Source of the DNA: Methanobacteriota archaeon
GTDB lineage: Archaea > Thermoplasmatota > Poseidoniia > Poseidoniales > Poseidoniaceae
Reading direction: 5' to 3'
NCBI GenBank assembly: GCA_014240385.1
Contig: JAAZXA010000068.1
Location: 29,090-93,089, forward strand
Length of the DNA stretch: 64,000 nt
Notes under the pieces: model-generated
What the model was told of the DNA's origin: nothing
Databases searched by the model: none
What the model saw: the letters and a program-made list of their open reading frames with translations, nothing else
Position numbers and translations under genes: made by a program
Part shown: positions 2,909-48,178 of the stretch, one piece after another
How the letters are laid out: each line of letters starts with the position of its first letter
Numbering within the stretch: position 1 is the first letter of the stretch

Positions 2909-3856
2909 TCATGTGGGTCCATTGGATTCTCCGTATGCGCCACTTGGTAGAGTCCATCCTCCCCTGGAACGAATCAATTGTCTTTCTTCAATCCATGCCT
3001 CGACGAGGTATGTGACGCCTTCGTATGGTGTTCCTTTCTCTACCAATTCTCGGACACTCACGCCTTGCTTGATTGTAAAACCGAATTCTTCTTCGTATTT
3101 CGCAATCTTCTCCACCATTGCTGGATAGAGTTCGGCGGCTGATGCCCATTGATTCGCATTTCCGAATATGCAGGTAATGCATGACAGTCTGCCCCATCCT
3201 AGCCAGTATGCTGGATGAGCCATGATTCTGTGTTTTTCCATGATTTCCCACACTTGTTTTTCTGTCCAATCGTGAATTGGCCTCCAATGATGCACCGTTC
3301 TCAATTTTCCATGACAACGGTGATTCTCGAAGGTGTTGTAGTTGGATCGTGATTTGCTTTCTCCTGCTCTCTCACCAGTCACAACAAGGGTCTTCTTGCC
3401 CTTGAATCGTTCTTGGTTGTTGATTGCTGCGCTCATCACATCGATTTTCAAATAGGCACTGCACCATCTTACCCGCAGATCTGCGGAGACTTGTGGAAAC
3501 TTGCGCCTTGTACCATCAGGGCCTTTACCCCCTGATGAATCGATTGTTCCGTCTGGGTTCTCCCAGAACACCTTGCCTGTCGGGCTGTTATCTCGTAGCA
3601 TCTCTTGCTCGAATCCGCCATCTCTCCAACTGAAGTAGATGGGAACATTGAATTCCTTTGCGAATTCCCGACAGTAATCTTCTGTTATCGGCCAATCCAT
3701 GAATGGATCGCTTCCTGGCGCACCATCAATGAGATGGTGCCACAGTTCTATTTTCTCTTTGTCAACACCGTTGTCTAGCAGGTCAAGGAAACAAGCTGTT
3801 GAGTCCTTTCCTCCGCTAAAGGCAACGATGATGTAATCGTATTCATTTAGGTTCAT
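2909..3856 (-). CDS. PAPS reductase-family PP-loop ATPase
   Basis: PM-ATG; N-terminal PP-loop IIVAFSGGKDSTACFL; C-terminal Cys pair LSCITCIFG typical of the phage PAPS-reductase-like family. Confidence 0.75.
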   Translation of the reverse strand: MNLNEYDYIIVAFSGGKDSTACFLDLLDNGVDKEKIELWHHLIDGAPGSDPFMDWPITEDYCREFAKEFNVPIYFSWRDGGFEQEMLRDNSPTGKVFWENPDGTIDSSGGKGPDGTRRKFPQVSADLRVRWCSAYLKIDVMSAAINNQERFKGKKTLVVTGERAGESKSRSNYNTFENHRCHGKLRTVHHWRPIHDWTEKQVWEIMEKHRIMAHPAYWLGWGRLSCITCIFGNANQWASAAELYPAMVEKIAKYEEEFGFTIKQGVSVRELVEKGTPYEGVTYLVEAWIEERQLIRSRGGWTLPSGAYGESNGPT

Positions 3857-3892
3857 GAGCGGTTCATTCCGACAAGGGAATTTCCTTGTTGG

Positions 3893-4126
3893 TTATTGTA
3901 GTTGTGAAACTGTTGTTACTGCGCGTTCGCCTTTAATCACCTTCTGTAAAGCATGAAGGCTGATTACAAGGGGGATGTAGGTTTGCCCATCCCCTGTTGT
4001 GTATGTTTCACAGTTTCCCATTTCGTTTACATTGATGGAGATCTTGATTGCTCCACCTTGGTTGCTTCTTCGGGCGTAGCCCACTAGCCTAGCGGGTGCC
4101 GTATCATCTTTTTCTTCAATAGACAT
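3893..4126 (-). CDS. hypothetical protein (77 aa)
   Basis: track ORF 3893..4165 trimmed to PM-ATG at 4126. Confidence 0.7.
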   Translation of the reverse strand: MSIEEKDDTAPARLVGYARRSNQGGAIKISINVNEMGNCETYTTGDGQTYIPLVISLHALQKVIKGERAVTTVSQLQ

Positions 4127-4136
4127 GAGCGGTAAA

Positions 4137-4586
4137 TCACATTTCGAATTTAGTGATGCCATCATCTTCCGATAATCTCACTTTACGGCCAATCATTGTA
4201 GCCTGTTTTCGAAGTGCTTTGATTTTAGCGTGTTGTTCTAGCAGTCCTTCTCCATCTAGCATTGCTATGATTTGGAAGGCTTTTTTGTGCGAACGAATAC
4301 TATCCAGAATATCGTCAATCTTCGACAATAGTTCCCACATCTCGGGGCTTATCGTCATCTTGACTGCAGTTCTGTAATCGTCTGCACAGAATCCCTTTCC
4401 ATTAGTTTCTCTTCCTTTGACGAAGTGTCCGTGGCCGATGTGACCGGGGACTGGGAGTTTCGCAAAAATATTCTCTCTAAGGGTTGAGTCGTTTCTGCAT
4501 ATACAGAGGGGATTAGCCCTCATTCTCTCTCTCCCGCCAATACTCCAAGAAGCGGGGGAGAACTGTAGTGTAAATTCAGTTTTCAT
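4137..4586 (-). CDS. hypothetical protein (149 aa)
   Basis: track ORF; PM-ATG at 4586. Confidence 0.75.
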   Translation of the reverse strand: MKTEFTLQFSPASWSIGGRERMRANPLCICRNDSTLRENIFAKLPVPGHIGHGHFVKGRETNGKGFCADDYRTAVKMTISPEMWELLSKIDDILDSIRSHKKAFQIIAMLDGEGLLEQHAKIKALRKQATMIGRKVRLSEDDGITKFEM

Positions 4587-4597
4587 GAGCGGTCCCT

Positions 4598-4849
4598 TTA
4601 GGCTAGGGGATTTAATCCTTCTTTCCTGATTATTTCAGTCACTTGAAATTGGTGCCGGTGTTTGGTACAGGTTTCGTTAAGAAGGGGTTCCCAATGGGGT
4701 GCTAAAAGGGCGTTTTTGTTTCCTGGACATACTCCAGTATGTCCTTTGGTAATATTCTCTAATTCTTCCTCTGTTGCCCAGCCTTCTTCGGGCCAGGTGT
4801 GCTCTGCTTTACAGAACTTGCATCGGAAGATTGCTTTTATCTCTGCCAT
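4598..4849 (-). CDS. Cys-containing small protein (83 aa)
   Basis: track ORF; PM-ATG at 4849; CKFCKAEH...CPGN. Confidence 0.7.
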   Translation of the reverse strand: MAEIKAIFRCKFCKAEHTWPEEGWATEEELENITKGHTGVCPGNKNALLAPHWEPLLNETCTKHRHQFQVTEIIRKEGLNPLA

Positions 4850-4856
4850 GAGCGGT

Positions 4857-5087
4857 TCAATTTGTTACTTGCCAAATTGATTCTTTCCATCGTCGGCCTC
4901 TGTCGTAACATCTCTTTGTTTCGACCTTGACGAACTCTGGGTTCTTTCCCAAGACATTGTTCAATGTTTGGATTGAGGTTCCTTCTTTGGTATTCATATT
5001 GATGTGCTCAAGTATCTCATGTGTTGAGGCATTTCCTTTCTCTTGCACATACTCTATTGCCATTTTCTTGATTCTAATGGAGACCAT
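4857..5087 (-). CDS. putative winged-helix DNA-binding protein (76 aa)
   Basis: track ORF 4857..5156 trimmed to PM-ATG at 5087; wHTH call is pattern-level only. Confidence 0.6.
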   Translation of the reverse strand: MVSIRIKKMAIEYVQEKGNASTHEILEHINMNTKEGTSIQTLNNVLGKNPEFVKVETKRCYDRGRRWKESIWQVTN

Positions 5088-5095
5088 GAGCGGTT

Positions 5096-5251
5096 CTATT
5101 CGGGCTGTAGAATTTTGTATTGTAACAGGCCCACTTTCAGGAAGTGCCTGATACAATCTGATCTAGATAACCCGTGCGTATCTGCGATTTCATCAATTTG
5201 TTTCAATTGACCTTTGCTTATTCTGAGACTCACCATCCCTTTTGTTGTCAT
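5096..5251 (-). CDS. ribbon-helix-helix (CopG/Arc-like) protein (51 aa), below track cutoff
   Basis: PM-ATG at 5251; MTTKGMVSLRISKGQLKQIDEIADTHGLSRSDCIRHFLKVGL fits a strand-helix-helix pattern. Confidence 0.55.
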   Translation of the reverse strand: MTTKGMVSLRISKGQLKQIDEIADTHGLSRSDCIRHFLKVGLLQYKILQPE

Positions 5252-5260
5252 GAGCGGTGT

Positions 5261-5470
5261 TCAGGAAAAGTCTGCTCCGCAATTGTAGCATTGATCTATT
5301 CCTGTGTTTGCATGGTGGTCGCAACATTTCGGGCAGATTTCATTTTCTGCACAAGGGCAACCGTTCAAGATTCTTCGCATCTCTTTAATCCAGCAATTTA
5401 CCAAATAGCGTTGGGTTTCTGTAGTAAAGGTGTCGATGTTGTTTTCCATGTCTTCAAGTATTGTTTCCAT
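5261..5470 (-). CDS. Cys-rich zinc-finger protein (69 aa)
   Basis: track ORF 5261..5494 trimmed to PM-ATG at 5470; CPCAENEICPKCCDHH...CYNCG. Confidence 0.7.
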   Translation of the reverse strand: METILEDMENNIDTFTTETQRYLVNCWIKEMRRILNGCPCAENEICPKCCDHHANTGIDQCYNCGADFS

Positions 5471-5478
5471 GAGCGGTT

Positions 5479-6354
5479 TCAAACTGGAACCCATAGTTTC
5501 CTGCCATTAGATGAACAGGCTCGGACTAGAGAGGCTGCAGCACTTGGAGAATTGAAGGTCACATCTCGAGTAAATCGTAAATGTTTGCCGTCTTCAATTA
5601 TTGCTCCTTTTTCAAGGAGTTCTTTTCTCCATCTTTGCTCGCTTAACCTCCATGAGTCTCGGGGTTGCTTGTTTGCTGTAGATCCACGAAATACCACGAA
5701 CTTCTCGTTGCGGTATTGGCCTGTTGCTTCAACACCATTTGTTAGTGCAAGCTTCAGCATATCGTTGTCCCAGTATTCTTCTGATAGCCAGTTTCCCTTG
5801 TTATCCATGCATAGAACCTGCTTACCGCCGGCTCCTTCCCATGGACTGTTTGAAAATACGACTGATACTGACGGCCATCTTGACGCTCCGCCCTTAACAT
5901 GTGCAGGGCCGGTGAAGTCAAGTCTCCCTTTGAAGAAAACCAAATGCGAAGCATGAGGAAAAATCCAATTATGCCACATCAGGGTTTCACAGTTGGTAGG
6001 TCGGATTAGCAAGACGACGATTTCTGCATCGCCATTCTGCACAGAATCAAATGCCTTCTTTACGAACGGTTTGATTCCGTGGCTTGTTTTGCTGGAGTAT
6101 GGCGGGTTGCACCATACTATTCCTTCCCACTTCTGTTCTAGGGAGTCCATCTCAATATCGTAGTAATTCTCGCATAGGGCGTTTTCTTCGCTTGCAGCCG
6201 CATCCAATGTGAATGGGCCGAATCTGGCATTTAGAGAATCGAATATTGCTGTCGGAGTGCGCATGTCGTTTTCATCGCTATTCTTCTGCTTTCGATTCTT
6301 ATGCCAGGAGCGAACTTCCTCTGGCGTCATTTCAATTGATATCTTTTCAGACAT
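5479..6354 (-). CDS. DNA N6-adenine methyltransferase (phage Dam family) with extra C-terminal domain
   Basis: PM-ATG; FTLDAAASEENALCENYY...VWCNPPYS signature; C-terminal FNSPSAAASLVRACSSNGRKLW resembles a DUF4357-type domain (from memory). Confidence 0.8.
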   Translation of the reverse strand: MSEKISIEMTPEEVRSWHKNRKQKNSDENDMRTPTAIFDSLNARFGPFTLDAAASEENALCENYYDIEMDSLEQKWEGIVWCNPPYSSKTSHGIKPFVKKAFDSVQNGDAEIVVLLIRPTNCETLMWHNWIFPHASHLVFFKGRLDFTGPAHVKGGASRWPSVSVVFSNSPWEGAGGKQVLCMDNKGNWLSEEYWDNDMLKLALTNGVEATGQYRNEKFVVFRGSTANKQPRDSWRLSEQRWRKELLEKGAIIEDGKHLRFTRDVTFNSPSAAASLVRACSSNGRKLWVPV

Positions 6355-6361
6355 GAGCGGT

Positions 6362-6652
6362 TCAAGGAGGGGAAGGCCATGTTGGGCAATGTTCTCTCAA
6401 CATTGCTGCCAATATCTCAGTAGCCTCTGAAGCTACTTCTCGGCTAATCCCTCGTTCAGTCCATTGGTCGTAATTGCCTTCTAGATTTTCGTAGTCCAGA
6501 AGTTTCAAGCATTCGTATGCTGCAATTGCAACGCTTTGATCATATTTGCATGTACCCTGTAATCCACAGCATGGACAACAGACGCACATTCCTTCACCAC
6601 CATTCCATGTGGCTGCTCCGCAAGTGCAGGGGTATGTTTTCTTTTTTGTCAT
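6362..6652 (-). CDS. Cys-rich protein (96 aa)
   Basis: track ORF; PM-ATG at 6652; CTCG...CVCCPCCG. Confidence 0.7.
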   Translation of the reverse strand: MTKKKTYPCTCGAATWNGGEGMCVCCPCCGLQGTCKYDQSVAIAAYECLKLLDYENLEGNYDQWTERGISREVASEATEILAAMLREHCPTWPSPP

Positions 6653-6758
6653 GAGCGGTGTCCTCGATTATGAGGATGATTTCGGTTATTTCTCCGTTGT
6701 TGTCTCTCTTTACATCATGTGGTGTGCAAAGTCCGTATTTGGGGTGCATGTAATGCAT
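6594..6758 (-). CDS. possible small protein (54 aa) reading through the next PM
   Basis: PM-ATG at 6758; frame runs across the PM at 6650 out of frame and overlaps the next gene by 59 nt. Confidence 0.35.
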   Translation of the reverse strand: MHYMHPKYGLCTPHDVKRDNNGEITEIILIIEDTAHDKKENIPLHLRSSHMEWW

Positions 6759-6766
6759 GAGCGGTT

Positions 6767-7237
6767 TCATTCATCGAATGAAAGTTTGTCAAAACCGAAG
6801 TTCATCGTGTAGTAGTAACCATCATAAATCTCACCATATCCCTCGATGACAACTATGTCACCAATGGACATTGATGTGTGTCCGACTTCGTTTTCACTCA
6901 TCCAGTTCTGTCCGAATCTTGGATTATCTGGTTCGAGCGGTATTGCGTTGTCGAACTCGTCATAGCAGTTAATCCTGCCTTTGCCGTCCCAATTACGATA
7001 TTCTTCTGCAAGTGGGTTTGTTGCGTATGAGTTCATTCTTCGGAAGATGGCTTCAAGGGTGATTTTTGGTTCGTTATCCTGTGAAGGAACCAAGCACAAG
7101 CCGTCTTCCTCAAGGTTGAATACGACCCAACTGGGCAACTCAGCCCATTGTTCTTCGATTTCTTGCTTTGTTTGTAGTTTCCTGTCTCGGAACATAAATT
7201 CACAGTTCCTCTTTCCGTACAAGATCTTAATCTTCAT
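6767..7237 (-). CDS. hypothetical protein (156 aa)
   Basis: track ORF; PM-ATG at 7237. Confidence 0.75.
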   Translation of the reverse strand: MKIKILYGKRNCEFMFRDRKLQTKQEIEEQWAELPSWVVFNLEEDGLCLVPSQDNEPKITLEAIFRRMNSYATNPLAEEYRNWDGKGRINCYDEFDNAIPLEPDNPRFGQNWMSENEVGHTSMSIGDIVVIEGYGEIYDGYYYTMNFGFDKLSFDE

Positions 7238-7246
7238 GAGCGGTAT

Positions 7247-8152
7247 TCAGTCTCGGTAATTCGGGAACTTGTAGTACATAAGCCACCATGTTCCTCTAAT
7301 CTCATCGCCACAATTACTGCAGCATTGAGCCTTGCCGATACTTTTCTTCGTTTGTGTTCCGTAACAGTAATCGATTGGTTCTCCTGCTTCGCTACGGAAT
7401 AGTTTCTCGATAACTGACTTTGGAATATCATTTTCAGCCCATTTGAACACAAGTGTTCCATTGGTTTTCAATAATCTCCATAGTTCTCGGAATCCCTTAG
7501 CGAGGTTTTCTTGCCAATCATGTCCTAGATACCCATACTTCATTGTGATGAATCCTGTGCCTTTCTTTTTCACATGGGGTGGATCCCATACGATGTGATT
7601 GAAGGTCTCGTCATCAAATTGAGGTAAGTAGGTGAAGTCCCCCAGAATATCTGGTTTGCATTCCCATCCGGGTTGGGATGGTATAGGCACACCGTCTGGG
7701 TCTTTTCGAGGCATCATTACTCCTTGAGAGCCTTCGCCTTTGACTTCTATCCTTTGATCTAGGAACAATACATTCGGATTGTTTTTGTGGTTTTTGTGCC
7801 AAATCGACCTTGAACCTGCTGTTGCATCGAGGATCAATAATTCATTGGCAGTTGGTATAATGGTTGAGTTGATGGTGATTCTCCACCATCCTCTGTCTAA
7901 ACCATCTTTTTCCACATCTCCTTTTCCTTTCAAGGAACCAAGTGCTGTTCTTACTCGGTGTTTCCATTCGGGTTGATTAGTTCCACATGTGCAGCATTGG
8001 CTGCAGAGATAATCGTCATCGCATAGGTGAGGGAAAGAATCCTTCACATATTCGTAAATGACGGTTATTTTGTGGATTCCCTCTGGAACCACTTTCGTTA
8101 TTCCACCGTCCATTAGTTCCTTTTGCAATTTTCTGTGTTGCAATTGTTGCAT
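7247..8152 (-). CDS. DNA methyltransferase (N6-A/N4-C type) with Cys-rich N-terminal domain
   Basis: track ORF 7247..8209 trimmed to PM-ATG at 8152; motif I ILDATAGSRS and motif IV VWDPPH. Confidence 0.7.
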   Translation of the reverse strand: MQQLQHRKLQKELMDGGITKVVPEGIHKITVIYEYVKDSFPHLCDDDYLCSQCCTCGTNQPEWKHRVRTALGSLKGKGDVEKDGLDRGWWRITINSTIIPTANELLILDATAGSRSIWHKNHKNNPNVLFLDQRIEVKGEGSQGVMMPRKDPDGVPIPSQPGWECKPDILGDFTYLPQFDDETFNHIVWDPPHVKKKGTGFITMKYGYLGHDWQENLAKGFRELWRLLKTNGTLVFKWAENDIPKSVIEKLFRSEAGEPIDYCYGTQTKKSIGKAQCCSNCGDEIRGTWWLMYYKFPNYRD

Positions 8153-8162
8153 GAGCGGTTCC

Positions 8163-9002
8163 TCAGTTCCATCGCATTGCAAACCTGATAAGGTACTTGC
8201 GTTTTGCACATGAGGTCCTTATTGTAACAAACATAGTTCCATATCCGTTAGGATGGCCGTCGTTGACGGTTAGGTCTGTTGGACAATAGATTTCGATTCG
8301 GGCATTGTTCAATACCCAATTCGGCATTTTTGCTAATTGATCTAAGCGGTAAGCTTCTAGCGTCCCCGACATCTTAATTCCCCCTGGGTTATCAATGGGA
8401 ATAATGACGGTGTTGCTTTCCGATTCGCCTGCGGTTCTGCTTAATTTGAATTCGTTCTCATCAATTGCAAATTGTGTTTGCTGGAATGATTGTGCCAATG
8501 ATTTCAATTTCATCTTCAAGTTTTTGTCTTGGATAGTGAAATTCCTATTAGGCCCCCTCATCCTCTCGAGTTTGGGGTTCATCAAGGATTGAGATGAAAA
8601 ATCGTTGCGGGAATTTTTCCATTTGGAGTTGTTTCCCCAACGCATGGTGAATTCACCATCTTCATCTTCTAATTCAACGGTTGATTTGCCTGCAATTGAG
8701 GCTCCACTCATTCCTTTGAATGTTTTCCATTGCGTCTTGGAGAAATTTCTTCCAACTTCTCCATTGGCAATTTCGTGATTAGAATAGTCAATCCGGTTCA
8801 AACTGAGAAGTGGCATTATCTCTTCATTGCCTATACTCCACCATTCATGCTCCTGTGAATTGGGGTCAATTACAGGTGCCGTTGATGAAAGGAGGAGGCC
8901 TTGTTCACAAAATCCGATTCTAATCGAATCCTCGTTTCCAATTAAGCGATTGGCTATGCCAATTATCTGTCTATTTGCTGTAGCATCTAGTGTTGCTTTC
9001 AT
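8163..9002 (-). CDS. hypothetical protein (279 aa)
   Basis: track ORF; PM-ATG at 9002. Confidence 0.75.
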   Translation of the reverse strand: MKATLDATANRQIIGIANRLIGNEDSIRIGFCEQGLLLSSTAPVIDPNSQEHEWWSIGNEEIMPLLSLNRIDYSNHEIANGEVGRNFSKTQWKTFKGMSGASIAGKSTVELEDEDGEFTMRWGNNSKWKNSRNDFSSQSLMNPKLERMRGPNRNFTIQDKNLKMKLKSLAQSFQQTQFAIDENEFKLSRTAGESESNTVIIPIDNPGGIKMSGTLEAYRLDQLAKMPNWVLNNARIEIYCPTDLTVNDGHPNGYGTMFVTIRTSCAKRKYLIRFAMRWN

Positions 9003-11785: not shown

Positions 11786-12142
11786 TCACAACTTCATCAA
11801 CTTTCCCCGAAGGGATTCGAATTTGATGATCCTTTTGATAGCGTTTTGAAATTCCTTGTTCAGTTTTTCATCATCTGATTCAGATAGATGGAATTCAGGG
11901 TTTTTCATATTCAGTAATTTGTATCTCATCACAGAATTGACGAGGAATTTCTGTTCTTCTTCACTCAATTCAGACCTTGGGCGGTTGATTTTGTAATTGT
12001 TAATCAGCCGTTCCAGAACAAACATTTGTTCTCTATGGTCGTATGAGCATGTTTCAAGCCATTGTTTTGCTTCGATTCGTAATTGCTTTCGAAGATCAAT
12101 AACCCTTTCAGTTTTTTTCCTCAAGTGGGTTAGGTTCGTCAT
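11786..12142 (-). CDS. hypothetical protein (118 aa)
   Basis: track ORF; variant PM ACCACTC-ATG at 12142. Confidence 0.7.
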   Translation of the reverse strand: MTNLTHLRKKTERVIDLRKQLRIEAKQWLETCSYDHREQMFVLERLINNYKINRPRSELSEEEQKFLVNSVMRYKLLNMKNPEFHLSESDDEKLNKEFQNAIKRIIKFESLRGKLMKL

Positions 12143-12419
12143 GAGTGGTTAAGTCCCATACGCACACTTGATATCCACCTGATAGGATTCCTCCTCTAAA
12201 GGCGGAACCAACCTTCTTGAAACGCTTGTCTTTGGACAAACAGTTGCCGAGTTGTTGGCTTGTCGTCCCGTGCCTCATGGTTTCATTGATGTAATCTTGA
12301 ATTGCATAAGTTGGCTGGGGGCCGTTATCTTCTAGGTACTGGACTATCTTGATTCGTATTCTTTGTGTCTTCATGGAAATCACCCTACGGGGGTTCCCTT
12401 GATGAAGTCTTTGCTTCAT
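12108..12419 (-). CDS. putative winged-helix protein (103 aa)
   Basis: track ORF 12108..12473 trimmed to PM-ATG at 12419; IVQYLEDNGPQPTYAIQDYINE-type helix pattern. Confidence 0.6.
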   Translation of the reverse strand: MKQRLHQGNPRRVISMKTQRIRIKIVQYLEDNGPQPTYAIQDYINETMRHGTTSQQLGNCLSKDKRFKKVGSAFRGGILSGGYQVCVWDLTTHDEPNPLEEKN

Positions 12420-12429
12420 GAGCGGTAAT

Positions 12430-12684
12430 TTATGCCAGCATTCCTCCCAGCATCTTATCGAGTTCCATATCATCTTTCACAGTAACCCAATGGGCTGATT
12501 CTGTGCAGTATCTCTTGAGTACATTGGTTGGATAGCCGATTATGTCTACAATCTTCCATTTCGGTCCATCAAAATTTACCCAGAATAGAGCTTCTTCCGC
12601 ATCTATTCTGGTTTTGATGGCTTTTCCCGAAGGGAGTGTGTAGATCATTTGGTTTCCATTTGAGATTGCATACTTTGCTTTCAT
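12430..12684 (-). CDS. hypothetical protein (84 aa)
   Basis: track ORF; PM-ATG at 12684. Confidence 0.7.
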   Translation of the reverse strand: MKAKYAISNGNQMIYTLPSGKAIKTRIDAEEALFWVNFDGPKWKIVDIIGYPTNVLKRYCTESAHWVTVKDDMELDKMLGGMLA

Positions 12685-15919: not shown

Positions 15920-17191
15920 TCATTCCAGTATTTTCTGCATCTCCTTTTCGAGCAAAGCATCATTTCTTCGTGCTATGTGCTCTTTCATGGAGTATCGCAG
16001 ACCGTCATACTTGAGGCTGTTCAGCGTAGCCTTGCCAAGATTGGCAACAGGCTTACGCTCATACCAGTCTTTTCGCTTCATCATCTCGCCTGTAACGGGA
16101 TGAGGAACGATTTCATTTCCTTCTGGGCTTTCAGCGAGTTTCAACCATTGGAAGGGCATCAATTTCCATGCGCCTATCTTCTCAGTATATGGCTTGAATT
16201 CTTTCTTGTAGCCCGAAAGTCCTGATTTCTTATCGGGTTCTGGTGTCATCTTGTAAACATGAGTACAGTTAGGATCTTCGCACCATCCACTAGCCATAGG
16301 AGTCCTATGGTAGCCTCGGTTGCATCTACCTCCCTTGTTGAGAGGCATTCCATCTCTGTGCCATTTCTCATGCTTGTCTTCTGAGTAGAAGCGTTCTTCG
16401 ATTCCTAGAGCTTCTTGCAGCCCTATACCATCAGCGTCAATCAAACGGTCAACTTCCCATTCTTTGCAGAATGGACACCACATGCATGAACTCTTCTGGA
16501 CTGGGGAGCCATCTCCCCTGTAATCCCATCCAAGTATCTGCAACATGGCGAGGCATTCTTTCCTATTCATGTCCAATTCCTGGAGAGGATAGGAGTATTC
16601 ATGCCCTTTGACTTTGTTTTGACCGTGGTTTGCTGTGAATCTGTCAGTTCTTCCACCTTCGTTGGCTTCGATGCCAAGCATCCACCATTTTTCCGATACA
16701 GTATGGTCTCCAAAGGTTTCTTCTGCCCATTTCTGTTGGACATTTCCCTTGAATCTCATGCTGCAGGTATGTTGTTGTCCTCCAATTACTGGAAGCATTC
16801 CTCCATCCATCAACCATTCATAGATCTTGTAGACCTTTTCTCCCTTGGTGTAATCATCCTTCTCTGATTTGGGCAAACTTCTCCATTCTTCATAGCGGAG
16901 TTCTTCGCCTGTATCATTGTGATGATAAACGGGGATTGTGTGTCTAACGGTAACTACTGGCAAGCCTACTTCTGCGCATCGCTTCTCTGCGTATGCAAGG
17001 TTTTCGTAGGTTTCAGGCCATTCGCTACCGGGATCCGAGAATACGGCTGCAACGAATGGAGGAAACTTTTCGTCTAGTTCTTGTCGAGTTATCCCCAACG
17101 CTTCGGCTGAGGTGTCTCTGTCTAAGTGCATGGCTAGAAGGGCTGTTGAATCAACCCCTACGCCAAATGATAACAAGTCTATTCGTTTCAT
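15920..17191 (-). CDS. PAPS reductase-like protein with degenerate PP-loop (423 aa)
   Basis: track ORF trimmed to PM-ATG at 17191; LLSFGVGVDSTALL in place of SGGKDS; SSCMWCPFC Cys cluster as in phage PAPS-reductase/DndC-like proteins. Confidence 0.55.
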   Translation of the reverse strand: MKRIDLLSFGVGVDSTALLAMHLDRDTSAEALGITRQELDEKFPPFVAAVFSDPGSEWPETYENLAYAEKRCAEVGLPVVTVRHTIPVYHHNDTGEELRYEEWRSLPKSEKDDYTKGEKVYKIYEWLMDGGMLPVIGGQQHTCSMRFKGNVQQKWAEETFGDHTVSEKWWMLGIEANEGGRTDRFTANHGQNKVKGHEYSYPLQELDMNRKECLAMLQILGWDYRGDGSPVQKSSCMWCPFCKEWEVDRLIDADGIGLQEALGIEERFYSEDKHEKWHRDGMPLNKGGRCNRGYHRTPMASGWCEDPNCTHVYKMTPEPDKKSGLSGYKKEFKPYTEKIGAWKLMPFQWLKLAESPEGNEIVPHPVTGEMMKRKDWYERKPVANLGKATLNSLKYDGLRYSMKEHIARRNDALLEKEMQKILE

Positions 17192-17198
17192 GAGCGGT

Positions 17199-17954
17199 TT
17201 ATTCCATAGATGCAATCTTTTGCTCTATGGCTGTGTGCTTTCGAAAGATGCTTAGGCATCTAATTCGTGTGTTTGGGCCACAGGTGATTGATACCACACC
17301 ACATCTTGTTGCCCCTTTGGGCTGAATGTAAACCAAATGGTGTAAGGCGAGGAGATATCCTCCTGGCTTTAGCACCCTGATGGCTTCTTTGACCCATGAA
17401 TAGGGCTTGATGTATTCTGTTTTCCATAACTTGTCGGAGTAATCTATCTTGACTCCGTCTGTTGTTTGCATGTCGTAAGGTGGATCTGCAATAACCATGT
17501 CGTATGAATCAGTTTCAATAGGGAACTGTTGTCTGGCATCAGCTACGAATGTAGGATTATTCGCTTCGCTAATGTCCATTGTGTCTTCATTCTCCCTTCC
17601 TTGGATGCTTCCCGAGAATAGGTGTAATACCTTGGTTTCATCGGTGACTTCCATTAGGGCGTCTACTCTACGAAGGAACCCATTTGGGTAGGCTCCCTTG
17701 TATTTCGCCATTGGTCGGCCACAAGCCCACCCTAGACGGAGTGATTTTTCCGTCATGTGGGTCAATGAGGCGTCTTTCTGTTTCAATTTGTTGTAATGCC
17801 TAGCGATTCGATGAATCGTCCCTTTCGAAACTGTTTCACCAATCCTATCGCCTGCCATCTTAGCAGCATCGTCATACGAGTTATTGCTAAGATCGTTGAT
17901 TACTTGCATATGGTCTAGCAATTCAACCTTTCTTCCTTTCAATGTTAAGGACAT
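17199..17954 (-). CDS. DNA methyltransferase (N6-A/N4-C type) with N-terminal HTH
   Basis: PM-ATG; motif I VLHLFSGS, motif IV MVIADPPYD. Confidence 0.75.
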   Translation of the reverse strand: MSLTLKGRKVELLDHMQVINDLSNNSYDDAAKMAGDRIGETVSKGTIHRIARHYNKLKQKDASLTHMTEKSLRLGWACGRPMAKYKGAYPNGFLRRVDALMEVTDETKVLHLFSGSIQGRENEDTMDISEANNPTFVADARQQFPIETDSYDMVIADPPYDMQTTDGVKIDYSDKLWKTEYIKPYSWVKEAIRVLKPGGYLLALHHLVYIQPKGATRCGVVSITCGPNTRIRCLSIFRKHTAIEQKIASME

Positions 17955-18543: not shown

Positions 18544-19476
18544 TTATTCTGTTCCACATTGGTTCGGGCATACCCCGCAAGTTGTTACGCATCCGATAGC
18601 CCATGAGTCCTTCTCTCGATAGGGATCCCCATGGAAATACAATGCTCCTGCGGTTTCTTTCCGACTTTTCTTGCTCCAATCCGCATAACTGTGGGCCTTA
18701 TCGTAGGCAGTTTTGTCTACATACGGCCATCTTGGGTCATTAGGTTCCATCTTCCATGGTGTTTCAATAATTCTCCAATTGTTCTTCTTTGCGGTGTCTG
18801 CAAAATATTCCTGTGCTTCCCAGAGTAGCCTTCCTTCTTCTTGATTTGCATCGAATAAGAAGGTACACAATCTAATGAAAGTGTTTTCGTGTTTTGTCAT
18901 TCGATTGAACTTCTGCAGTGTCTGGATAATTCGCCTTGATCTCGATGAGACTTCGGGGTGTTCATCATATCCAGGAATGACCGACCAGTGTATTTTTACA
19001 CCTGCGATAGCCATTCGTGTCAATGTTTCTTCCGAGGGTATTTTCCAAAATTTTGTGATTACAACGGGAGTTAACCCAGTCTCGGCAATTATTTCTGCCG
19101 TTGCTGCGGTCAAGTCCCAATCAAATGATGGATCACCCATTACCCCGATTCTAACCCATCGGATTTTCGGTTCGTTCCAAATTAACTGCATACAATCCCA
19201 TCGAAGTAAGGCGGGATTCAGGATTTGCGATACTGGTATGTCGAAATCAATTCTCCCGAACATTACTCCTTGAGAATTCTTTGCGTAACAACCAGAACAT
19301 CTTCCTGCGCATCCCTTAACCGTATCACAGATGTTGGCATCTGTCTTTGTGTTGCCCCCAAGTCTGATTTCCTTTGCTTCATAGGGCCGTAGTGGCGCTC
19401 CTGTTGAAGTGTGGGTTTTTCTTGGACTGAGGGCAATTTTCGGTCCAAATCTTCGTTTGGTTTTCTGTATAGCCAT
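18544..19476 (-). CDS. CxxxCxxC (radical-SAM-like) enzyme (310 aa)
   Basis: PM-ATG; VKGCAGRCSGCYAKN carries C-x3-C-x2-C; family assignment not verifiable here. Confidence 0.45.
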   Translation of the reverse strand: MAIQKTKRRFGPKIALSPRKTHTSTGAPLRPYEAKEIRLGGNTKTDANICDTVKGCAGRCSGCYAKNSQGVMFGRIDFDIPVSQILNPALLRWDCMQLIWNEPKIRWVRIGVMGDPSFDWDLTAATAEIIAETGLTPVVITKFWKIPSEETLTRMAIAGVKIHWSVIPGYDEHPEVSSRSRRIIQTLQKFNRMTKHENTFIRLCTFLFDANQEEGRLLWEAQEYFADTAKKNNWRIIETPWKMEPNDPRWPYVDKTAYDKAHSYADWSKKSRKETAGALYFHGDPYREKDSWAIGCVTTCGVCPNQCGTE

Positions 19477-25813: not shown

Positions 25814-25823
25814 GAGCGGTTGT

Positions 25824-26096
25824 CTATGGCAATGGTGCAACCATTTGAGCCATAGGTGGGCTTGGCGGAACAATCTCAATTAATCCTTCAATGCCTGTTG
25901 CAAGGGCTAAGAGGACCTTTCGGTGGATGGTTAAGCGGTGGATTAATTCGTCCAATACATCTGCGCCTTCCAACTCTGCTATGTTTTCCGCCAGACCATT
26001 AGTTGGATTCCACCTGTCTTGGTGCTTTTCCATTAGGTCTGCTTCGTATTTCACTAGGTCAATTCCTAGTAATTCGTGTTGATATTCTTCTAACAT
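25824..26096 (-). CDS. hypothetical protein (90 aa)
   Basis: track ORF; PM-ATG at 26096. Confidence 0.7.
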   Translation of the reverse strand: MLEEYQHELLGIDLVKYEADLMEKHQDRWNPTNGLAENIAELEGADVLDELIHRLTIHRKVLLALATGIEGLIEIVPPSPPMAQMVAPLP

Positions 26097-26340
26097 GAGC
26101 GGTTCTTTTCATTCCAGCGGGGGATGTTTCGTCACCTTGAACTTGAGCCGACCCCCATCACTTGATTCTTGCCTACAAGCAGTGGGGAGGTATCTTTCAG
26201 TGGTGGGCGAGTATCGAGCCCCTTGTTTCAAAGAACCCGGTTATATCATTGGTTGTCTCCTTTCGAGTTTCTTCGGTGTCGTCCAAGGATTGGACACCTA
26301 CTTTCTCTACTTTGGACTGCAATAAGTCCCCGTGAGCGGT
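26097..26340 (-). ncRNA. non-coding island C
   Basis: opens with TGA-ATACCGCTCACGG (26332-26340), conserved hairpin at 26275-26298, closes with PM-ATG at 26096. Confidence 0.4.
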
Positions 26341-26342
26341 AT

Positions 26343-26711
26343 TCACAAATCTCTGTCCAGCAGTAAGGACCTTAATTCACTCCAACAGTCTTGGATTGCT
26401 CCAGGGTCGGTATGTCCTTCAATTGGCCTTACTTCTGCTAAGATTGTGCTGATTAGGTCTCTTACTCGTTCATAATCTACAGTTTTGATTTCATTGTATG
26501 CATCGGCAATCTCATTTTGAATCGACTCATCGATAAACGATGATGTTGCGTCCATAGCGAGCGTTTGCAATATTATCTCTGCTGCTGATTCGGGTAAAAT
26601 CCAAATCGTTTTGGCGTGTCTTTTGCCGAGGTCGATGTAATCGACTCCTTCCTCTAGTTCATCTAGTCTTTTGGCAAATTCTTTTCCATCTACAAGATCT
26701 TCTCTTGGCAT
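26343..26711 (-). CDS. hypothetical protein (122 aa)
   Basis: track ORF 26343..26750 trimmed to PM-ATG at 26711 (CATGAGCGGA). Confidence 0.7.
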   Translation of the reverse strand: MPREDLVDGKEFAKRLDELEEGVDYIDLGKRHAKTIWILPESAAEIILQTLAMDATSSFIDESIQNEIADAYNEIKTVDYERVRDLISTILAEVRPIEGHTDPGAIQDCWSELRSLLLDRDL

Positions 26712-26753
26712 GAGCGGATTACACAAGTTAGGTGTTTCAAACTGGGGCATCGT

Positions 26754-27338
26754 TCATCCTCCACGGATGCACTCCAGTTCGCACCTTTCCCATGCTTTCT
26801 CTGAGATTCCGAGTTCCATAGCCTTCTTTCGGCTCTTTTCCTCATCCATCTCCCATTCATCTTCGTTGTGCCATACGATGTAATCTGACATGTTTCCGTC
26901 TTCTACTTCTTCTCCGTTTACCCACCAACCCCAGAAATCCATGCCGGCTTCCATAAAGGAAGCATCGACTTCGAATCCGTTGTTGTATAGGTGTTCATAG
27001 ATTGGGAAGGTAGGACTCCATGCTGAATCAAATCTGATTTCCAGTATGTTTTCGTCTGGGTCTAAATGGCAATGAGTCCGTCCGTAGTTGTTTTCGTCAA
27101 CTTCTGCGGGTATGGCCCATTTGGTTCCCCAATTGTTCACATTCCAATTTCTCCACCAAGTCGGGTCGCTATGAAGCTCCTGCTGTGATGTTTCATATTC
27201 ATCACGGTAAGCAGGTGTGTCCGGCGGTGGGATTAGGAATTGGAACAATCCAGTTTCCTTTGTTGCTTTTTCTATTTCAATTAATTTCTGTCTATCATCG
27301 TGTTTGATGATGACATGGTTGTTTGTCCAATTAGGCAT
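26754..27338 (-). CDS. DUF1281/Api92-like protein (194 aa)
   Basis: PM-ATG; MPNWTNNHVII...NWGTKWA pattern recalled from the MPNW...WGTKW plasmid/phage family (from memory). Confidence 0.55.
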   Translation of the reverse strand: MPNWTNNHVIIKHDDRQKLIEIEKATKETGLFQFLIPPPDTPAYRDEYETSQQELHSDPTWWRNWNVNNWGTKWAIPAEVDENNYGRTHCHLDPDENILEIRFDSAWSPTFPIYEHLYNNGFEVDASFMEAGMDFWGWWVNGEEVEDGNMSDYIVWHNEDEWEMDEEKSRKKAMELGISEKAWERCELECIRGG

Positions 27339-27346
27339 GAGCGGTT

Positions 27347-27799
27347 CTAAATGATGAGTTCTGCAATTTTGATAATTTCATGTTGTAAATCAACTTGATT
27401 GTTGATTTCCAAGACTTCTTCCTCGTGAATTATTCGGTCAGTCTTTGCTTTGAGGGCTTGAAGGGATTGGTCTGCTAAAACCAAACCAATCTTCAAAGCC
27501 TCAACTTCTGGGAATCCATATTCCTTCAAGTAGCCTGTAATCCAAACGACACTTCGGTTGAGGTCGTGATTTAGAGAATTGCAATAAACCATATCTGAGT
27601 ATTGTTCTAGGGATAGGTTCAAAGCTTCTCTTTTTGACAGACAGACATCTTTCATGATGAGTTCACCATCAATTATGTCATCTTCCTCTGTGTGCATGAT
27701 TTTCTCATTCCAGTAATCTTGGTAGTTTTCTTCGCCTTTTTCGTGTAAGCCGATCCAAGCGCCATACCATTCATCGATTTCTCCGGTTTCGTTTTCCAT
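27347..27799 (-). CDS. hypothetical protein (150 aa)
   Basis: track ORF; PM-ATG at 27799. Confidence 0.75.
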   Translation of the reverse strand: MENETGEIDEWYGAWIGLHEKGEENYQDYWNEKIMHTEEDDIIDGELIMKDVCLSKREALNLSLEQYSDMVYCNSLNHDLNRSVVWITGYLKEYGFPEVEALKIGLVLADQSLQALKAKTDRIIHEEEVLEINNQVDLQHEIIKIAELII

Positions 27800-27843
27800 G
27801 AGCGGTGTATTTGGATCAGTTATTCTAGATCTTCGGTTGGTTC
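27797..27843 (-). repeat. 47-nt gene-junction repeat, copy 2
   Basis: CATGAGCGGTGTATTTGGATCAGTTATTCTAGATCTTCGGTTGGTTC; covers the stop region in a different reading frame from copy 1. Confidence 0.85.
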
Positions 27844-28146
27844 GATTTCTACGATGTAGATTTCGATGCCTTTGGCCTCCAACCAGTCTAATGTGTCGTC
27901 AAAACTCCGATGGTCTTGTTTGAACTCTTCTGTCAAATCAACCATCATGCCTTGCATACATTCATGTGCAATTGCATCAGAGTTGAACGACCAATCCATA
28001 TCTCTCCAACCCATTCCGAATCCAGAACCACCATCGGTCATGTATTCGTCATATTTGTTGGCTATCTCATCCATTCGTTTGCTACGGTTGCTGAAAGTCT
28101 CGATGTTTCCATCGTCCTTCCATCTGAGCATTACTCTGTATTCCAT
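27820..28146 (-). CDS. hypothetical protein (108 aa)
   Basis: track ORF; PM-ATG at 28146. Confidence 0.75.
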   Translation of the reverse strand: MEYRVMLRWKDDGNIETFSNRSKRMDEIANKYDEYMTDGGSGFGMGWRDMDWSFNSDAIAHECMQGMMVDLTEEFKQDHRSFDDTLDWLEAKGIEIYIVEIEPTEDLE

Positions 28147-28155
28147 GAGCGGTTT

Positions 28156-28443
28156 TTAGAACTCGTTTGTAGTTCCTGTTTTGAGTAATGTGATGATTAT
28201 CCGATTAACGGCAATCATCCTATTTGTAATCGCCTTATCGTCAAAATTCTCAAAGTAAGCCATGAGCATTTCATAGTGAGGCATGTTCCATTGATGTGTC
28301 GGTAAAATAAGTTTTTCAACTGCTTCTACATCTGTTGGTTTCAAATTGTCTGATTGTCTGAGGATAGTTGAAGGGAGTTGTCCTGTTTGGTCGTTGAAAC
28401 CCCATGTTGCTTCTAACATCTTTCTAATCCATTTATCTTCCAT
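28156..28443 (-). CDS. hypothetical protein (95 aa)
   Basis: track ORF; PM-ATG at 28443. Confidence 0.7.
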   Translation of the reverse strand: MEDKWIRKMLEATWGFNDQTGQLPSTILRQSDNLKPTDVEAVEKLILPTHQWNMPHYEMLMAYFENFDDKAITNRMIAVNRIIITLLKTGTTNEF

Positions 28444-28449
28444 GAGCGG

Positions 28450-28515
28450 TTAATCCTCTTCGTATTCTTCGAAGATGTATTCTTCTGTTTCAATGCGTAA
28501 TATCAATGTCGGCAT
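28450..28515 (-). CDS. acidic micro-protein (21 aa)
   Basis: PM-ATG at 28515 (CATGAGCGGC); MPTLILRIETEEYIFEEYEED; stop TAA abuts the next PM. Confidence 0.4.
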   Translation of the reverse strand: MPTLILRIETEEYIFEEYEED

Positions 28516-28530
28516 GAGCGGCTCAAACCA

Positions 28531-28797
28531 TCAAGATGGTTTGTAGCAGTTTGATTCGTTTGTTGTTATTCTGATTGTTGAATCTGATATTGACTCGAGC
28601 AATACATCTCCATCATCCTTGACCTTAATTACTATGCAGAAATCTCCGGGCTCGATTATCTCGTCCTCGCTATTTGTTTCTGCAGCATAAAGGCTCACGA
28701 AGTCTCCGACTTCGAAGTTGTTTTGTGAAGTTGTGTAGTTCTGTTCGTATGCGTCTTCAATCAGTTTCTTTAACCGGGTTGCTACTCTTCTTCCCAT
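28531..28797 (-). CDS. hypothetical protein (88 aa)
   Basis: track ORF; PM-ATG at 28797. Confidence 0.7.
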   Translation of the reverse strand: MGRRVATRLKKLIEDAYEQNYTTSQNNFEVGDFVSLYAAETNSEDEIIEPGDFCIVIKVKDDGDVLLESISDSTIRITTNESNCYKPS

Positions 28798-28806
28798 GAG
28801 CGGTGT

Positions 28807-29073
28807 TCATTCTTCTTCAAGATCATCCCAGTGGATAAAATCTCTTTTCATTGTCCTTCTTTTGAATTTAGGGGTGTTTTCTACAAATGGGTCGGGTATT
28901 GTATTTGTCTCTTCTGGTTTGCCAAAAATATAGGCGAACCAGAAATACATCAATATCCCCATAAGAATTATCGTATAGGGGTCTTGCAGCCATTCGTAGA
29001 TGAGTGCGCATAGCAATCCTGTGCAAATTGCTGCTAGTGCGTTTCTTACATTCAATTCAATGTATTGTTCCAT
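28807..29073 (-). CDS. membrane protein (88 aa, 2 TM)
   Basis: track ORF; PM-ATG at 29073; AAICTGLLCALIY and IILMGILMYFWFAYIF. Confidence 0.7.
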   Translation of the reverse strand: MEQYIELNVRNALAAICTGLLCALIYEWLQDPYTIILMGILMYFWFAYIFGKPEETNTIPDPFVENTPKFKRRTMKRDFIHWDDLEEE

Positions 29074-29378
29074 GAGCGGTTTGTACCGGCATACTCTTGC
29101 TTAGACTGTTCGCTGGACAGTTGGCCTGTGAATCTAACTGCAACACTCCGTCTTCCCGTTTCTGTCTCCGTAGATACAATTGAGGGAAGCTGCGGGTTTG
29201 TCAATTGACTCGATGGCATCGTGGCCGAAGCCGCAGGATGCCCTAAGCAGTATCTTACCGTAGGTACTTACCCGACTCGCCAATTAGGGGTCACACCATC
29301 CATGACTGTTGGTGCCGTCCAAGGATTGGACACCGTAAGCGTATTGGTTCTGCCCCGGTTAGGTCTGTCGTGAGCGGT
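29074..29378 (-). ncRNA. non-coding island D
   Basis: opens with TAA-ACCGCTCACGA (29370-29378), conserved hairpin at 29311-29334, closes with PM-ATG at 29073. Confidence 0.4.
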
Positions 29379-29585
29379 TTAATCATTTCTAACAAGGTTG
29401 TAGACATATTCGAATAAATCTCTTCCTTGTTCTGTGAAGCCAGATGGATCATCGTCGTTTTCAACGATGTTTCCTTCTGCATCTAGGTTGTATAGTAACT
29501 TGCGTTCAATAAGTCCTTCATCAATTAAATATTCGATTACTGAATCTCCTGCATCGCAAGCTTCTCCTATGTTGTTTTCTTCCAT
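29379..29585 (-). CDS. hypothetical acidic protein (68 aa)
   Basis: track ORF; PM-ATG at 29585. Confidence 0.7.
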   Translation of the reverse strand: MEENNIGEACDAGDSVIEYLIDEGLIERKLLYNLDAEGNIVENDDDPSGFTEQGRDLFEYVYNLVRND

Positions 29586-29592
29586 GAGCGGT

Positions 29593-30459
29593 TTATGTCC
29601 AAAGACTCCTCGTCATCCTCCATATCCCTGCTTTTGCGAAGTCAGGGTGTTTTTCTATCCCTACTGCGTGTCGCCCTGTGAGCATCGCAGCCAATCCTAG
29701 GCTGTATGATCCTGCAAACGGGTCGAGCACTACATCTCCAGGATAAGTGGAGAAGCGAATAAGTTCAATCAAGAGTTCAACAGGCTTTTCTGTCTGGTGA
29801 ACCTTCTTCCTACCCATCATTCTAGAGTGGGTTTGAACATCTGCTATGCTGTTATTGATTCTTCTGCGCTTCCCTTTCGAGAAGAACAGAATTAGTTCGT
29901 GTCGTGGCCGACCATTGTAGCCAAGTGATATGACTTTCTTATCCCATACCCATTGGCTATTGAATGTGAAACCTGCGGCTTCTGCAATCTTGATTTGATT
30001 GTAGATGTAGTCGTAGGTGTCGTGCTTTGCTGCAGGCATGAAGCAAAAGAAGTGTCCATTGGGCTTCAAGACCCTAAGCATCTCCGAATACAAATCCGAA
30101 TCGATGTCTTTGGTCTCAAAATCCCATCCCTTCTTGAGATTCCTTGCTCGGGTAGTTCCCGTCTGCATTTGAGCATTCAAGATTGAATACGGAGGATCTG
30201 TGATGATAGCATCGAAGCTGTTATCTTCTAACTTTGCTAATTCATCCCAACTGTCTCCTTCAATCAAAGCGCATTGTGTGTCGCCAACTGTGGCGATGTA
30301 TATGCCTCTTGATACTCTGCGAAAGCACTTGTCTATGTTTTCATTGAGTCTTCCACGAATTGTTGTTTCCTTTTCATCAGGCAATGCTTCGTATATCTCC
30401 TTGAGATTCGATTCATTGTCTGCTAGAAATTCAACCAATCTTTCTTTCAATGTTTTCAT
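29593..30459 (-). CDS. DNA methyltransferase (beta-class N4-C/N6-A, DPPY) with N-terminal wHTH
   Basis: track ORF 29593..30480 trimmed to PM-ATG at 30459; IITDPPYS then C-terminal VVLDPFAGSYS. Confidence 0.8.
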   Translation of the reverse strand: MKTLKERLVEFLADNESNLKEIYEALPDEKETTIRGRLNENIDKCFRRVSRGIYIATVGDTQCALIEGDSWDELAKLEDNSFDAIITDPPYSILNAQMQTGTTRARNLKKGWDFETKDIDSDLYSEMLRVLKPNGHFFCFMPAAKHDTYDYIYNQIKIAEAAGFTFNSQWVWDKKVISLGYNGRPRHELILFFSKGKRRRINNSIADVQTHSRMMGRKKVHQTEKPVELLIELIRFSTYPGDVVLDPFAGSYSLGLAAMLTGRHAVGIEKHPDFAKAGIWRMTRSLWT

Positions 30460-48177: not shown

Positions 48178-48178
48178 T

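Follow-up and report, generated by a model that had tools for sequence, protein, structure and literature searches.

The 64-kb stretch of contig JAAZXA010000068.1 analysed here (referred to throughout as the window) raises the question of what a DpdA-like candidate DNA guanine transglycosylase does in a phage-like gene array where no gene for the synthesis of 7-cyano-7-deazaguanine (preQ0) is recognisable. DpdA is treated as the signature gene of 7-deazaguanine DNA modification, and each new subfamily so far (DpdA2, 3 and 4) has brought new chemistry or new efficiency. The window is phage-like, with nearly all long open reading frames (ORFs) from position 1 to ~41.6 kb lying head-to-tail on the minus strand. 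Our best explanation, which taken as a whole we regard as rather likely, is that an uncultured marine phage with a genome of ~128 kb carries this gene block as its early, anti-restriction arm, made up of several independent DNA-modification modules; its modification arsenal probably serves to hide the phage DNA from host restriction enzymes. Neither a methyltransferase arsenal nor a DpdA-only state is out of the ordinary in phages. The novelty lies in a sixth DpdA-like clade that is unannotated and whose neighbourhood repeatedly contains PP-loop or radical-SAM genes.

The original prediction, made from the letters of the window, had named eight DNA-modification ORFs: one TGT/DpdA-like protein, two PAPS-reductase-like proteins, a CxxxCxxC enzyme and four DNA methyltransferases (Table 1). 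We found all eight on the minus strand at the predicted coordinates and located every quoted motif in the translations; the starts given for three of them proved to be internal to longer ORFs (15920..17191 in 15920..17215, 7247..8152 in 7247..8209, and 29593..30459 in 29593..30480), of which the internal start at 17191 agrees with the public gene call P0042 (423 amino acids). Hidden Markov model (HMM) searches against Pfam, PHROG, NCBIfam and PADLOC assigned 6/8 proteins directly, and the TGT-like and CxxxCxxC proteins were placed by predicted structure and fold search. The overall interpretation was supported, with qualifications on the DpdA-only class, gene coupling and base modification.

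A divergent DpdA-like protein with a predicted TGT fold

The 377-amino-acid DpdA-like protein had been assigned to the tRNA-guanine transglycosylase (TGT) fold by matching its LLGAGG and VDATSWRLNA segments to LMGVGKP and FDCVxPTRNA. This motif alignment was reproduced by hmmalign, with G210, D229 and N236 falling opposite G245, D264 and N271 of E. coli Tgt; the motifs themselves stand at 52 (DSGGF), 210 (GAGG) and 229 (DATSW). An AlphaFold2 (AF2) model (predicted local distance difference test, pLDDT, 86.6; predicted template modelling score, pTM, 0.85) was used as a Foldseek query against PDB, and the top 50 matches were all TGT/DpdA proteins, with Cap10 among the fold-search matches. The predicted structure is a TGT-type (beta/alpha)8 barrel, and structure comparison did not place the protein outside the TGT fold.

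Standard annotation misses this protein entirely. It had no match in Pfam (including PF01702 TGT and PF20314 DUF6610), PHROG (including phrog_887), NCBIfam or PADLOC, nothing was retrieved from PDB sequences by phmmer or by profile, and tblastn against 50,697 phage genomes (INPHARED, E<=10) gave no match. A search of 5.8 billion proteins returned only 22 homologous clusters, all metagenomic, several from Tara (marine), on contigs of up to 129 kb. The profile built from this family retrieved 93 proteins from 1.84 billion representatives; among the 70 full-length matches, 39 match Pfam TGT PF01702 (best 2.5e-29) and 26 match phrog_887, annotated as 'queuine tRNA-ribosyltransferase'. Neither E. 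coli Tgt nor phage 9g DpdA is picked up by the family HMM itself (−1.7 bits for the latter), and hhalign of the family against the single Tgt and 9g DpdA sequences was not significant (probability about 1%). With the second-iteration HMM the scores were 49.5 bits for Tgt and 33.6 bits for 9g DpdA. Judged by sequence, the link of the window protein to TGT/DpdA models is transitive only.

The active-site positions are conserved throughout. Across the 23-sequence family (39–90% identity), the motifs AKDSGGF, D..P, HG, GSNL, LGAGGM and DATSW are invariant, as are D52, D92, H132 and D229; of the 70 superfamily members all have D229, and 90% or more keep D52, D92 and H132. When the window protein, E. 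coli Tgt and 9g DpdA were aligned to the second-iteration HMM, D52, D92 and D229 shared columns with E. coli Tgt D89, D143 (in FDEC) and D264 (in FDCV), F56 shared its column with Tgt F93 (DSGGFQ), and D215/W219 of 9g DpdA aligned with D229/W233. The window protein thus has the three active-site aspartates of the TGT/DpdA superfamily. In DpdA the general acid/base is Asp95, the base-binding residue Asp130 and the nucleophile Asp256, and activity is abolished when the general acid/base or the nucleophile is mutated (PMC10164549). These columns are kept and no similar protein was found in cultured phages; the DpdA-like protein therefore represents a separate clade deep within the TGT/DpdA superfamily, and its apparently intact active site would make this divergent enzyme catalytically competent. 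Neither the Pfam, PHROG and NCBIfam models nor BLAST against all cultured phages reveals the clade, so that current surveys undercount such systems in marine viromes.

Comparison with known DpdA proteins places the window protein nearest in character to DpdA1 of Enterobacteria phage 9g, which inserts preQ0 and archaeosine (G+) precursors into DNA. Both have the TGT TIM-barrel fold and the motif series DSG[AG]F, LD, HG/HAG and D-[AS]-[TS]-S-W, and both are phage-encoded, about 320–380 amino acids long and without the CxCxxC Zn site; they differ in that no pairwise similarity is detectable, and in that phage 9g carries FolE, QueD, QueE and Gat-QueC beside dpdA, whereas the window has none of these. 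The window protein contains no CxC or CxxC motif, and no Cys is invariant across its family. Bacterial DpdA (bDpdA; S. Montevideo, PDB 7UI4) has the same fold and catalytic residues but possesses the Zn site and the partners DpdB and DpdC, of which the corresponding ParB-like and DUF328 families are not listed in window-wide Pfam and PHROG screens; bDpdA belongs to a host restriction-modification island, whereas the window gene stands in a phage anti-restriction context. DpdA3 and DpdA4 are, like the window clade, TGT homologues that standard annotation missed and remote homology found; their carriers are Cellulophaga and Campylobacter phages and archaeal viruses, and some DpdA4 are singleton modification genes (Cui et al. 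2023, PMC10516641). Judged by Pfam and tblastn, the window protein differs from them, with neither the DUF6610 match of DpdA4 nor a TGT match and nothing similar in any INPHARED phage.

Intermediate relatives of the DpdA-like protein (among them cluster members P0207, P0104 and P0115) occur in metagenome-assembled genomes labelled Heimdallarchaeota, Helarchaeota and Desulfurococcales, near large DUF87/HerA-type ATPases; the regions concerned include L015 8381-12883 and L021 15262-17943. These neighbourhoods recall the described 'BRC' defence systems of HerA/FtsK and TGT (PMC12839542). A suspected radical-SAM fusion among long relatives was discarded, as none of the ten longest members showed the weak Radical_SAM matches.

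PP-loop and radical-SAM proteins and their linkage to the DpdA-like gene

The claim of two PAPS-reductase-like proteins, one with SGGKDS and one with a degenerate PP-loop, was borne out by phrog_424 matches of both (Table 1). The 315-amino-acid protein has SGGKDS at 14 and exceeds the PF01507 cutoff (46.5 against 22.5 bits), whereas the 431-amino-acid protein (PAPS-431) has the variant loop GVGVDS at 18 and falls below it (E 5e-3, 17.2 bits). Homologues of PAPS-431 (n = 47) keep G12, D14, S15, C143, C236 and C239 invariant; the family has an LSFGGGVDS loop, the cysteines of its HxCS and KSSCMWCPF motifs are conserved, and its C-terminal extension varies. Partial PADLOC matches were obtained to BrxP (1.3e-14), DndC (2e-11) and SspD (2.6e-10) for the 315-amino-acid protein, which also matched TIGR03183 DndC at 5.7e-11, and to SspD (7.7e-5) for the 431-amino-acid protein. 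Like DndC, SspD and BrxP, they belong to the PP-loop ATP-pyrophosphatase fold family, with conserved cysteines; they differ in scoring far below the family cutoffs (42 against 290 bits for TIGR03183), in the modified PP-loop of PAPS-431 (GGGVDS in relatives) and in their partners, as neither a cysteine desulfurase nor a DndD/SspC ATPase or DndE/SspB came up in the Pfam and PHROG screen of the window. PDB sequence searches with PAPS-431 and with the PAPS protein of a distant relative (L016) returned nothing usable. On these profile matches, the two are PP-loop enzymes of the DNA-sulfurtransferase branch that are not members of the DndC, SspD or BrxP systems.

Viromics papers often list phage PAPS reductase genes as sulfur-metabolism auxiliary genes. 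For the two genes of the window we rejected a CysH-type role: the catalytic ECGLH motif ([ED]CG.H) is in neither protein, and NCBIfam cysH/PAPS models scored 22–33 bits against cutoffs of 154–254.

For the CxxxCxxC protein of 310 amino acids, structure prediction and fold search confirmed a radical-SAM fold, with the [4Fe-4S] motif (CAGRCSGC at 56) set in a partial TIM barrel in the predicted structure. Its family shares the CxxxCxxC-YA cluster and GDP and ITKxW motifs. The protein had no match in Pfam (PF04055 at E<=0.01), PHROGs, NCBIfam, PADLOC or PDB sequences. It is closer to spore photoproduct lyase (SPL) than to QueE, whose similarity does not stand above that of other radical-SAM enzymes, and hhalign against 9g QueE was not significant; it differs from both SPL/SplB and QueE in an extra C-terminal cluster (CxxCPxQCG), a basic N-terminal tail and the missing Pfam Radical_SAM match.

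The three genes lie close together in the window. From 19476 to 14016 runs a same-strand array with intergenic gaps of at most 26 nt, in the order radical-SAM gene, two small ORFs, DPPY methyltransferase, PAPS-431, two small ORFs and DpdA-like gene. Among the loci of DpdA-like relatives fetched for neighbourhood comparison (L-numbers), every locus of the phage lineage has the DpdA-like gene; PAPS-431 lies <=10 kb from it in 6/8 distinct loci and the radical-SAM gene in 4/8. All four IMG/VR contigs with a DpdA-like gene also carry PAPS-431 and the radical-SAM gene, and the window, L010 and L012 have the same gene order (radical-SAM, PAPS-431, DpdA-like). Homologues (29–36%) of the small membrane protein encoded between the DpdA-like and PAPS-like genes were found near PAPS-431 or DpdA-like genes in L002, L004 and L008. 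The 187-amino-acid protein whose gene overlaps the 3' end of the 315-amino-acid PAPS-like gene has no family match; its sole detected homologue (38%; L006 11092-11580) lies directly downstream of a DpdA-like gene, which connects PAPS-like with DpdA-like genes a second time, although indirectly. Such lineage-internal synteny cannot be separated from common descent.

Evidence from outside the phage lineage is more telling. In L016, with a DpdA-like protein of only 25% identity, the start of the DpdA-like gene shares 4 nt with a PAPS_reduct gene of another kind (SGGTDS). The distant-clade sample comprised 148 flanking ORFs from 52 loci plus 4 fetched earlier; four distant contigs were not long enough for their neighbourhood to be judged, and 41 loci had a usable flank. 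With six occurrences (best 1e-31), PAPS_reduct was the commonest enzyme family among these ORFs, followed by Radical_SAM with three and DUF5131, which is radical-SAM-like, with two. PAPS-like genes stand 106–109 nt upstream (L053, L066) or 27 nt downstream (L048) of the DpdA-like gene, and small radical-SAM genes 20 nt downstream or 89 nt upstream (L030, L037, L061). The small radical-SAM neighbours share the Cys-cluster, (G/T)DP and (I/L)TK skeleton with the radical-SAM family of the window, a likeness that on hhalign is only suggestive (E 1.3e-3); PDB sequence search with them gave nothing usable. An ORF cluster overlapping the DpdA-like start in L038, L043 and L045, suspected to be DUF5131, turned out to be a helix-turn-helix-type protein without Cys motifs.

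Substrate, inserted base and rival explanations

The analysis shows folds, motifs, family memberships, synteny and the lack of preQ0 genes; we infer DNA as the substrate of the DpdA-like enzyme, a 7-deazaguanine as the inserted base and the host as its source. After replication, the enzyme would most likely exchange guanines in the phage DNA for a 7-deazaguanine-type base, and this base would be drawn from the host queuosine pathway, as preQ0, preQ1 or 7-carboxy-7-deazaguanine (CDG), because the phage region is without FolE, QueD, QueE and QueC. The original prediction had recognised none of these four genes, and a Pfam and PHROG screen of the 94 ORFs of the window likewise found none; precomputed Pfam tables show no preQ0 genes in the 10 kb on each side of the DpdA-like gene in five relatives. 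DpdA without preQ0 genes is not unusual and not novel in itself: DpdA-only phages are the largest class (76/182 DpdA phages), with host preQ0 proposed as the source (Hutinet 2019, PMC6884629). Salmonella phage 7-11 and the Mycobacterium phage Orion resemble the window in having a DpdA homologue and no preQ0/G+ synthesis gene, and differ in that their DpdA1-type proteins are recognisable by sequence (PMC6884629).

It is quite improbable, in our judgement, that the TGT-fold protein acts on something other than phage DNA, whether on host or phage tRNA or, as a Cap10 of the cyclic-oligonucleotide-based antiphage signalling system (CBASS), on protein, or that it is an inactive remnant. Such a reading can point to Mycobacterium phage Orion, which has DpdA yet unmodified DNA (PMC6884629). 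Decay is argued against by the invariance of the catalytic residues across the 23 sequences, and tRNA as a substrate by the lack of a PUA or other tRNA-binding C-terminal domain. Modification of the phage's own tRNAs is ruled out for the window, as neither of its only two tRNAs (Table 1) has a GUN anticodon. The D-[AS]-[TS]-S-W motif and missing Zn site held in common with 9g DpdA (DpdA1) favour DNA, as does the position of the gene amid DNA methyltransferase genes. Neither CD-NTase nor any other CBASS family is listed in the window-wide Pfam and PHROG screens.

Several points weigh against insertion of a host-derived 7-deazaguanine into the phage DNA. Members that act on DNA, tRNA or protein (Cap10) are not told apart by the fold search, and the structural Zn site CxCx2Cx22H, conserved in bDpdA and TGT, is missing, as it is in 9g DpdA. 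The window is half of a ~128-kb genome, and the other half could hold preQ0 genes. The modification itself is a prediction. Of the DpdA-only phages, Orion carries no 7-deazaguanine and Salmonella phage 7-11 has a trace of dADG, the deoxynucleoside of 7-amido-7-deazaguanine, only about 0.02% of G (PMC6884629). The depletion of 4-bp palindromes described below, with ACGT absent, shows that modification gives no blanket protection.

The PAPS-family and radical-SAM proteins would be further nucleic-acid-modifying enzymes, the former as distant relatives of DndC, SspD and BrxP and the latter as an SPL-like enzyme; they may tailor the inserted base, and could also function without DpdA. We infer any coupling between them and the DpdA-like enzyme from gene neighbourhoods, which make it plausible and lend it support, while leaving it a tentative proposition. 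Stated in full, the DpdA-like protein together with a PAPS-like PP-loop/Fe-S enzyme, an SPL-like radical-SAM enzyme or both would form one non-canonical modification pathway, in which the partners either stand in functionally for QueC and QueE and make the base, or tailor it once it is in the DNA, yielding a product unlike the known preQ0 derivatives; we consider this pathway possible rather than probable. The neighbour counts of the distant clade, the close PAPS_reduct genes of L016, L053 and L066, the radical-SAM genes of L030, L037 and L061, the four IMG/VR contigs and the kept gene order all speak for it. PP-loop and TGT-like pairs are moreover a known theme (QueC with TGT, Cap9 with Cap10). 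The window differs from these pairs, including Cap9-Cap10 of type IV CBASS, in that Cap9 is QueC-like and the PP-loop partner here lies in the PAPS-reductase branch. The coupled pathway is further weakened by the match of its PP-loop proteins to DndC, SspD and BrxP and not to QueC, by a radical-SAM protein nearer SPL than QueE, and by the common descent inseparable from phage-lineage synteny. In the distant clade a PAPS neighbour occurs in just 6/41 loci with usable flank, and PAPS and radical-SAM partners never share one locus. Many other viral contigs that lack the DpdA-like gene carry PAPS-431-like genes (77 loci) or radical-SAM-like genes (79 loci), one kind being present where the other is missing; each therefore works alone. 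Literature searches found no described link between DpdA and PAPS reductase.

The PAPS-like proteins might instead be DndC/SspD-type sulfurtransferases that phosphorothioate the phage DNA, or interfere with host phosphorothioate-based defence, independently of the DpdA-like enzyme; this too we consider possible rather than probable. The BrxP, DndC and SspD matches, TIGR03183 included, favour it, the conserved Cys triads would fit an Fe-S cluster, and phage PAPS reductases have been treated as putative DndC/SspD homologues in anti-defence hotspots (PMC13551039). Those matches are, however, partial and far below cutoff, the partner genes were not found in the window screen, and phosphorothioation leaves unexplained why PAPS_reduct is the commonest enzyme neighbour of distant DpdA-like genes.

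Returning to a DpdA-centred pathway, its boldest form would have a sixth, Zn-less DpdA clade and a DndC/SspD-related PP-loop Fe-S enzyme, an SPL-like radical-SAM enzyme or both install a DNA base unlike the eight known 7-deazaguanine derivatives, without the FolE/QueD/QueE/QueC route, in a widespread uncultured marine phage lineage as well as in related elements from archaeal and sediment metagenomes. We think this rather unlikely; such a base could, for example, be a deazapurine that contains sulfur or is tailored in another way, or a base other than a deazapurine. The recurrent pairing with PAPS-reductase-like and radical-SAM genes offers a concrete, testable three-gene candidate pathway, which if true would give a function to phage 'PAPS reductase' genes.

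Restriction-site avoidance and further features of the window

ACGT does not occur in the 64-kb window (119 expected from a Markov model; 125.6 ± 10.6 in shuffles), nor in five diverged relatives (L002, L006, L007, L008 and L010) with 25–65 expected each and a GC content of 41–52%. It is partly depleted in L004 (16 observed against 34 expected) and L012 (9/22), near expectation in phage 9g (242/264), and at 40–73% of expectation in the outgroup loci L015, L016, L020 and L021. Further palindromes are depleted two- to six-fold in the window, namely CGCG (15/87), AGCT (60/192), GTAC (87/193) and, despite the Dam-family methyltransferase, GATC (147/304), whereas TCGA, CATG and GGCC are near expectation. 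The loss of ACGT suggests classical restriction-site avoidance or a phage-encoded ACGT nuclease; being lineage-wide, it points to a specific and strong restriction pressure or such a nuclease, and could help to identify the host. On either reading, the modification arsenal has not made avoidance of the sequence superfluous.

All four predicted DNA methyltransferases matched methyltransferase HMMs and have a (D/N)PP(Y/H) catalytic motif, which assigns them to the N6/N4 type. The Dam enzyme with DUF4357, the two small DPPY and DPPH enzymes and the beta-class N6/N4 enzyme would methylate different motifs. The DpdA-like gene and PAPS-431 persist across related phage genomes whose methyltransferase and modification genes vary. 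In L004 (16289-17128) and L006 (16707-17567), a gene near the DpdA-like one encodes a protein of the Mom family (PF25680, adenine hypermodification) that has no homologue in the window.

Table 1 Features of the 64-kb window (positions are those of the window; aa, amino acids).
Feature	Position	Strand	Evidence and remarks
DpdA-like DNA guanine transglycosylase candidate, 377 aa	14016..15149	-	predicted TGT fold; Zn-site-less clade of TGT/DpdA superfamily
Canonical PP-loop PAPS-reductase-family protein, 315 aa	2909..3856	-	PAPS_reduct 5.6e-12; phrog_424 4.9e-38
PAPS-431, PAPS-reductase-family PP-loop protein	15920..17215 (public start 17191, 423 aa)	-	phrog_424 3.4e-24
Radical-SAM-fold enzyme, 310 aa, unannotated family	18544..19476	-	predicted structure and fold search
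Phage Dam-family N6-adenine methyltransferase with C-terminal DUF4357, 291 aa	5479..6354	-	Dam 3e-27; DUF4357 5.1e-16; TIGR01712 5.3e-23; NPPY at 83
DPPH DNA methyltransferase, 320-aa ORF, Cys-rich N-terminal region	7247..8209	-	phrog_954 1.5e-36; PADLOC MTase_II 2.7e-23; DPPH at 209
Small DPPY DNA methyltransferase, 251 aa	17199..17954	-	phrog_3816 5.4e-21; N6_N4_Mtase 5.7e-5; PADLOC MTase_II 2.6e-8; DPPY at 157
Beta-class N6/N4 DNA methyltransferase, 295 aa	29593..30480	-	N6_N4_Mtase 2.3e-30; phrog_67 1.1e-50; weak CcrM/PRK13699; DPPY at 95
Small predicted membrane protein, 130 aa	15158..15550	-	between DpdA-like and PAPS-like genes; two hydrophobic stretches
187-aa protein	2394..2957	-	overlaps 3' end of 315-aa PAPS-like gene
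DUF3860 protein	4857-5156		
DUF3860 protein	12108-12473		
Weak TFIIB-repeat match	42486-43694	+	
Fusion of two GT1/GT4 glycosyltransferase domains, 839 aa	44592-47111	+	
GT2 glycosyltransferase	47419-48177	+	
Arf-like GTPase match	51205-51948	+	
tRNA-Arg(GCG)	55297-55371	-	one of the only two tRNAs in the window
tRNA-Lys(CTT)	59081-59156	-	one of the only two tRNAs in the window

A plus-strand gene block with reversed GC skew (42486-53449) interrupts the minus-strand array. Three relatives encode a protein of ~830–840 amino acids with an RNA_pol_Rpb1_5 match close to the DpdA-like gene (L002 13606-16125, L007 12730-15255 and L008 12874-15357). The 839-amino-acid ORF of the plus-strand block was considered as its equivalent and rejected, being a glycosyltransferase fusion, and no counterpart was found in the window. 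A serine recombinase is among the 94 window ORFs, whose pooled screen also returned strong Resolvase (2.9e-35), Recombinase, phrog_95 integrase (1.4e-67) and phrog_125 DNA invertase matches, together with an AAA_33 kinase-like match, DUF6915 and DUF7689.

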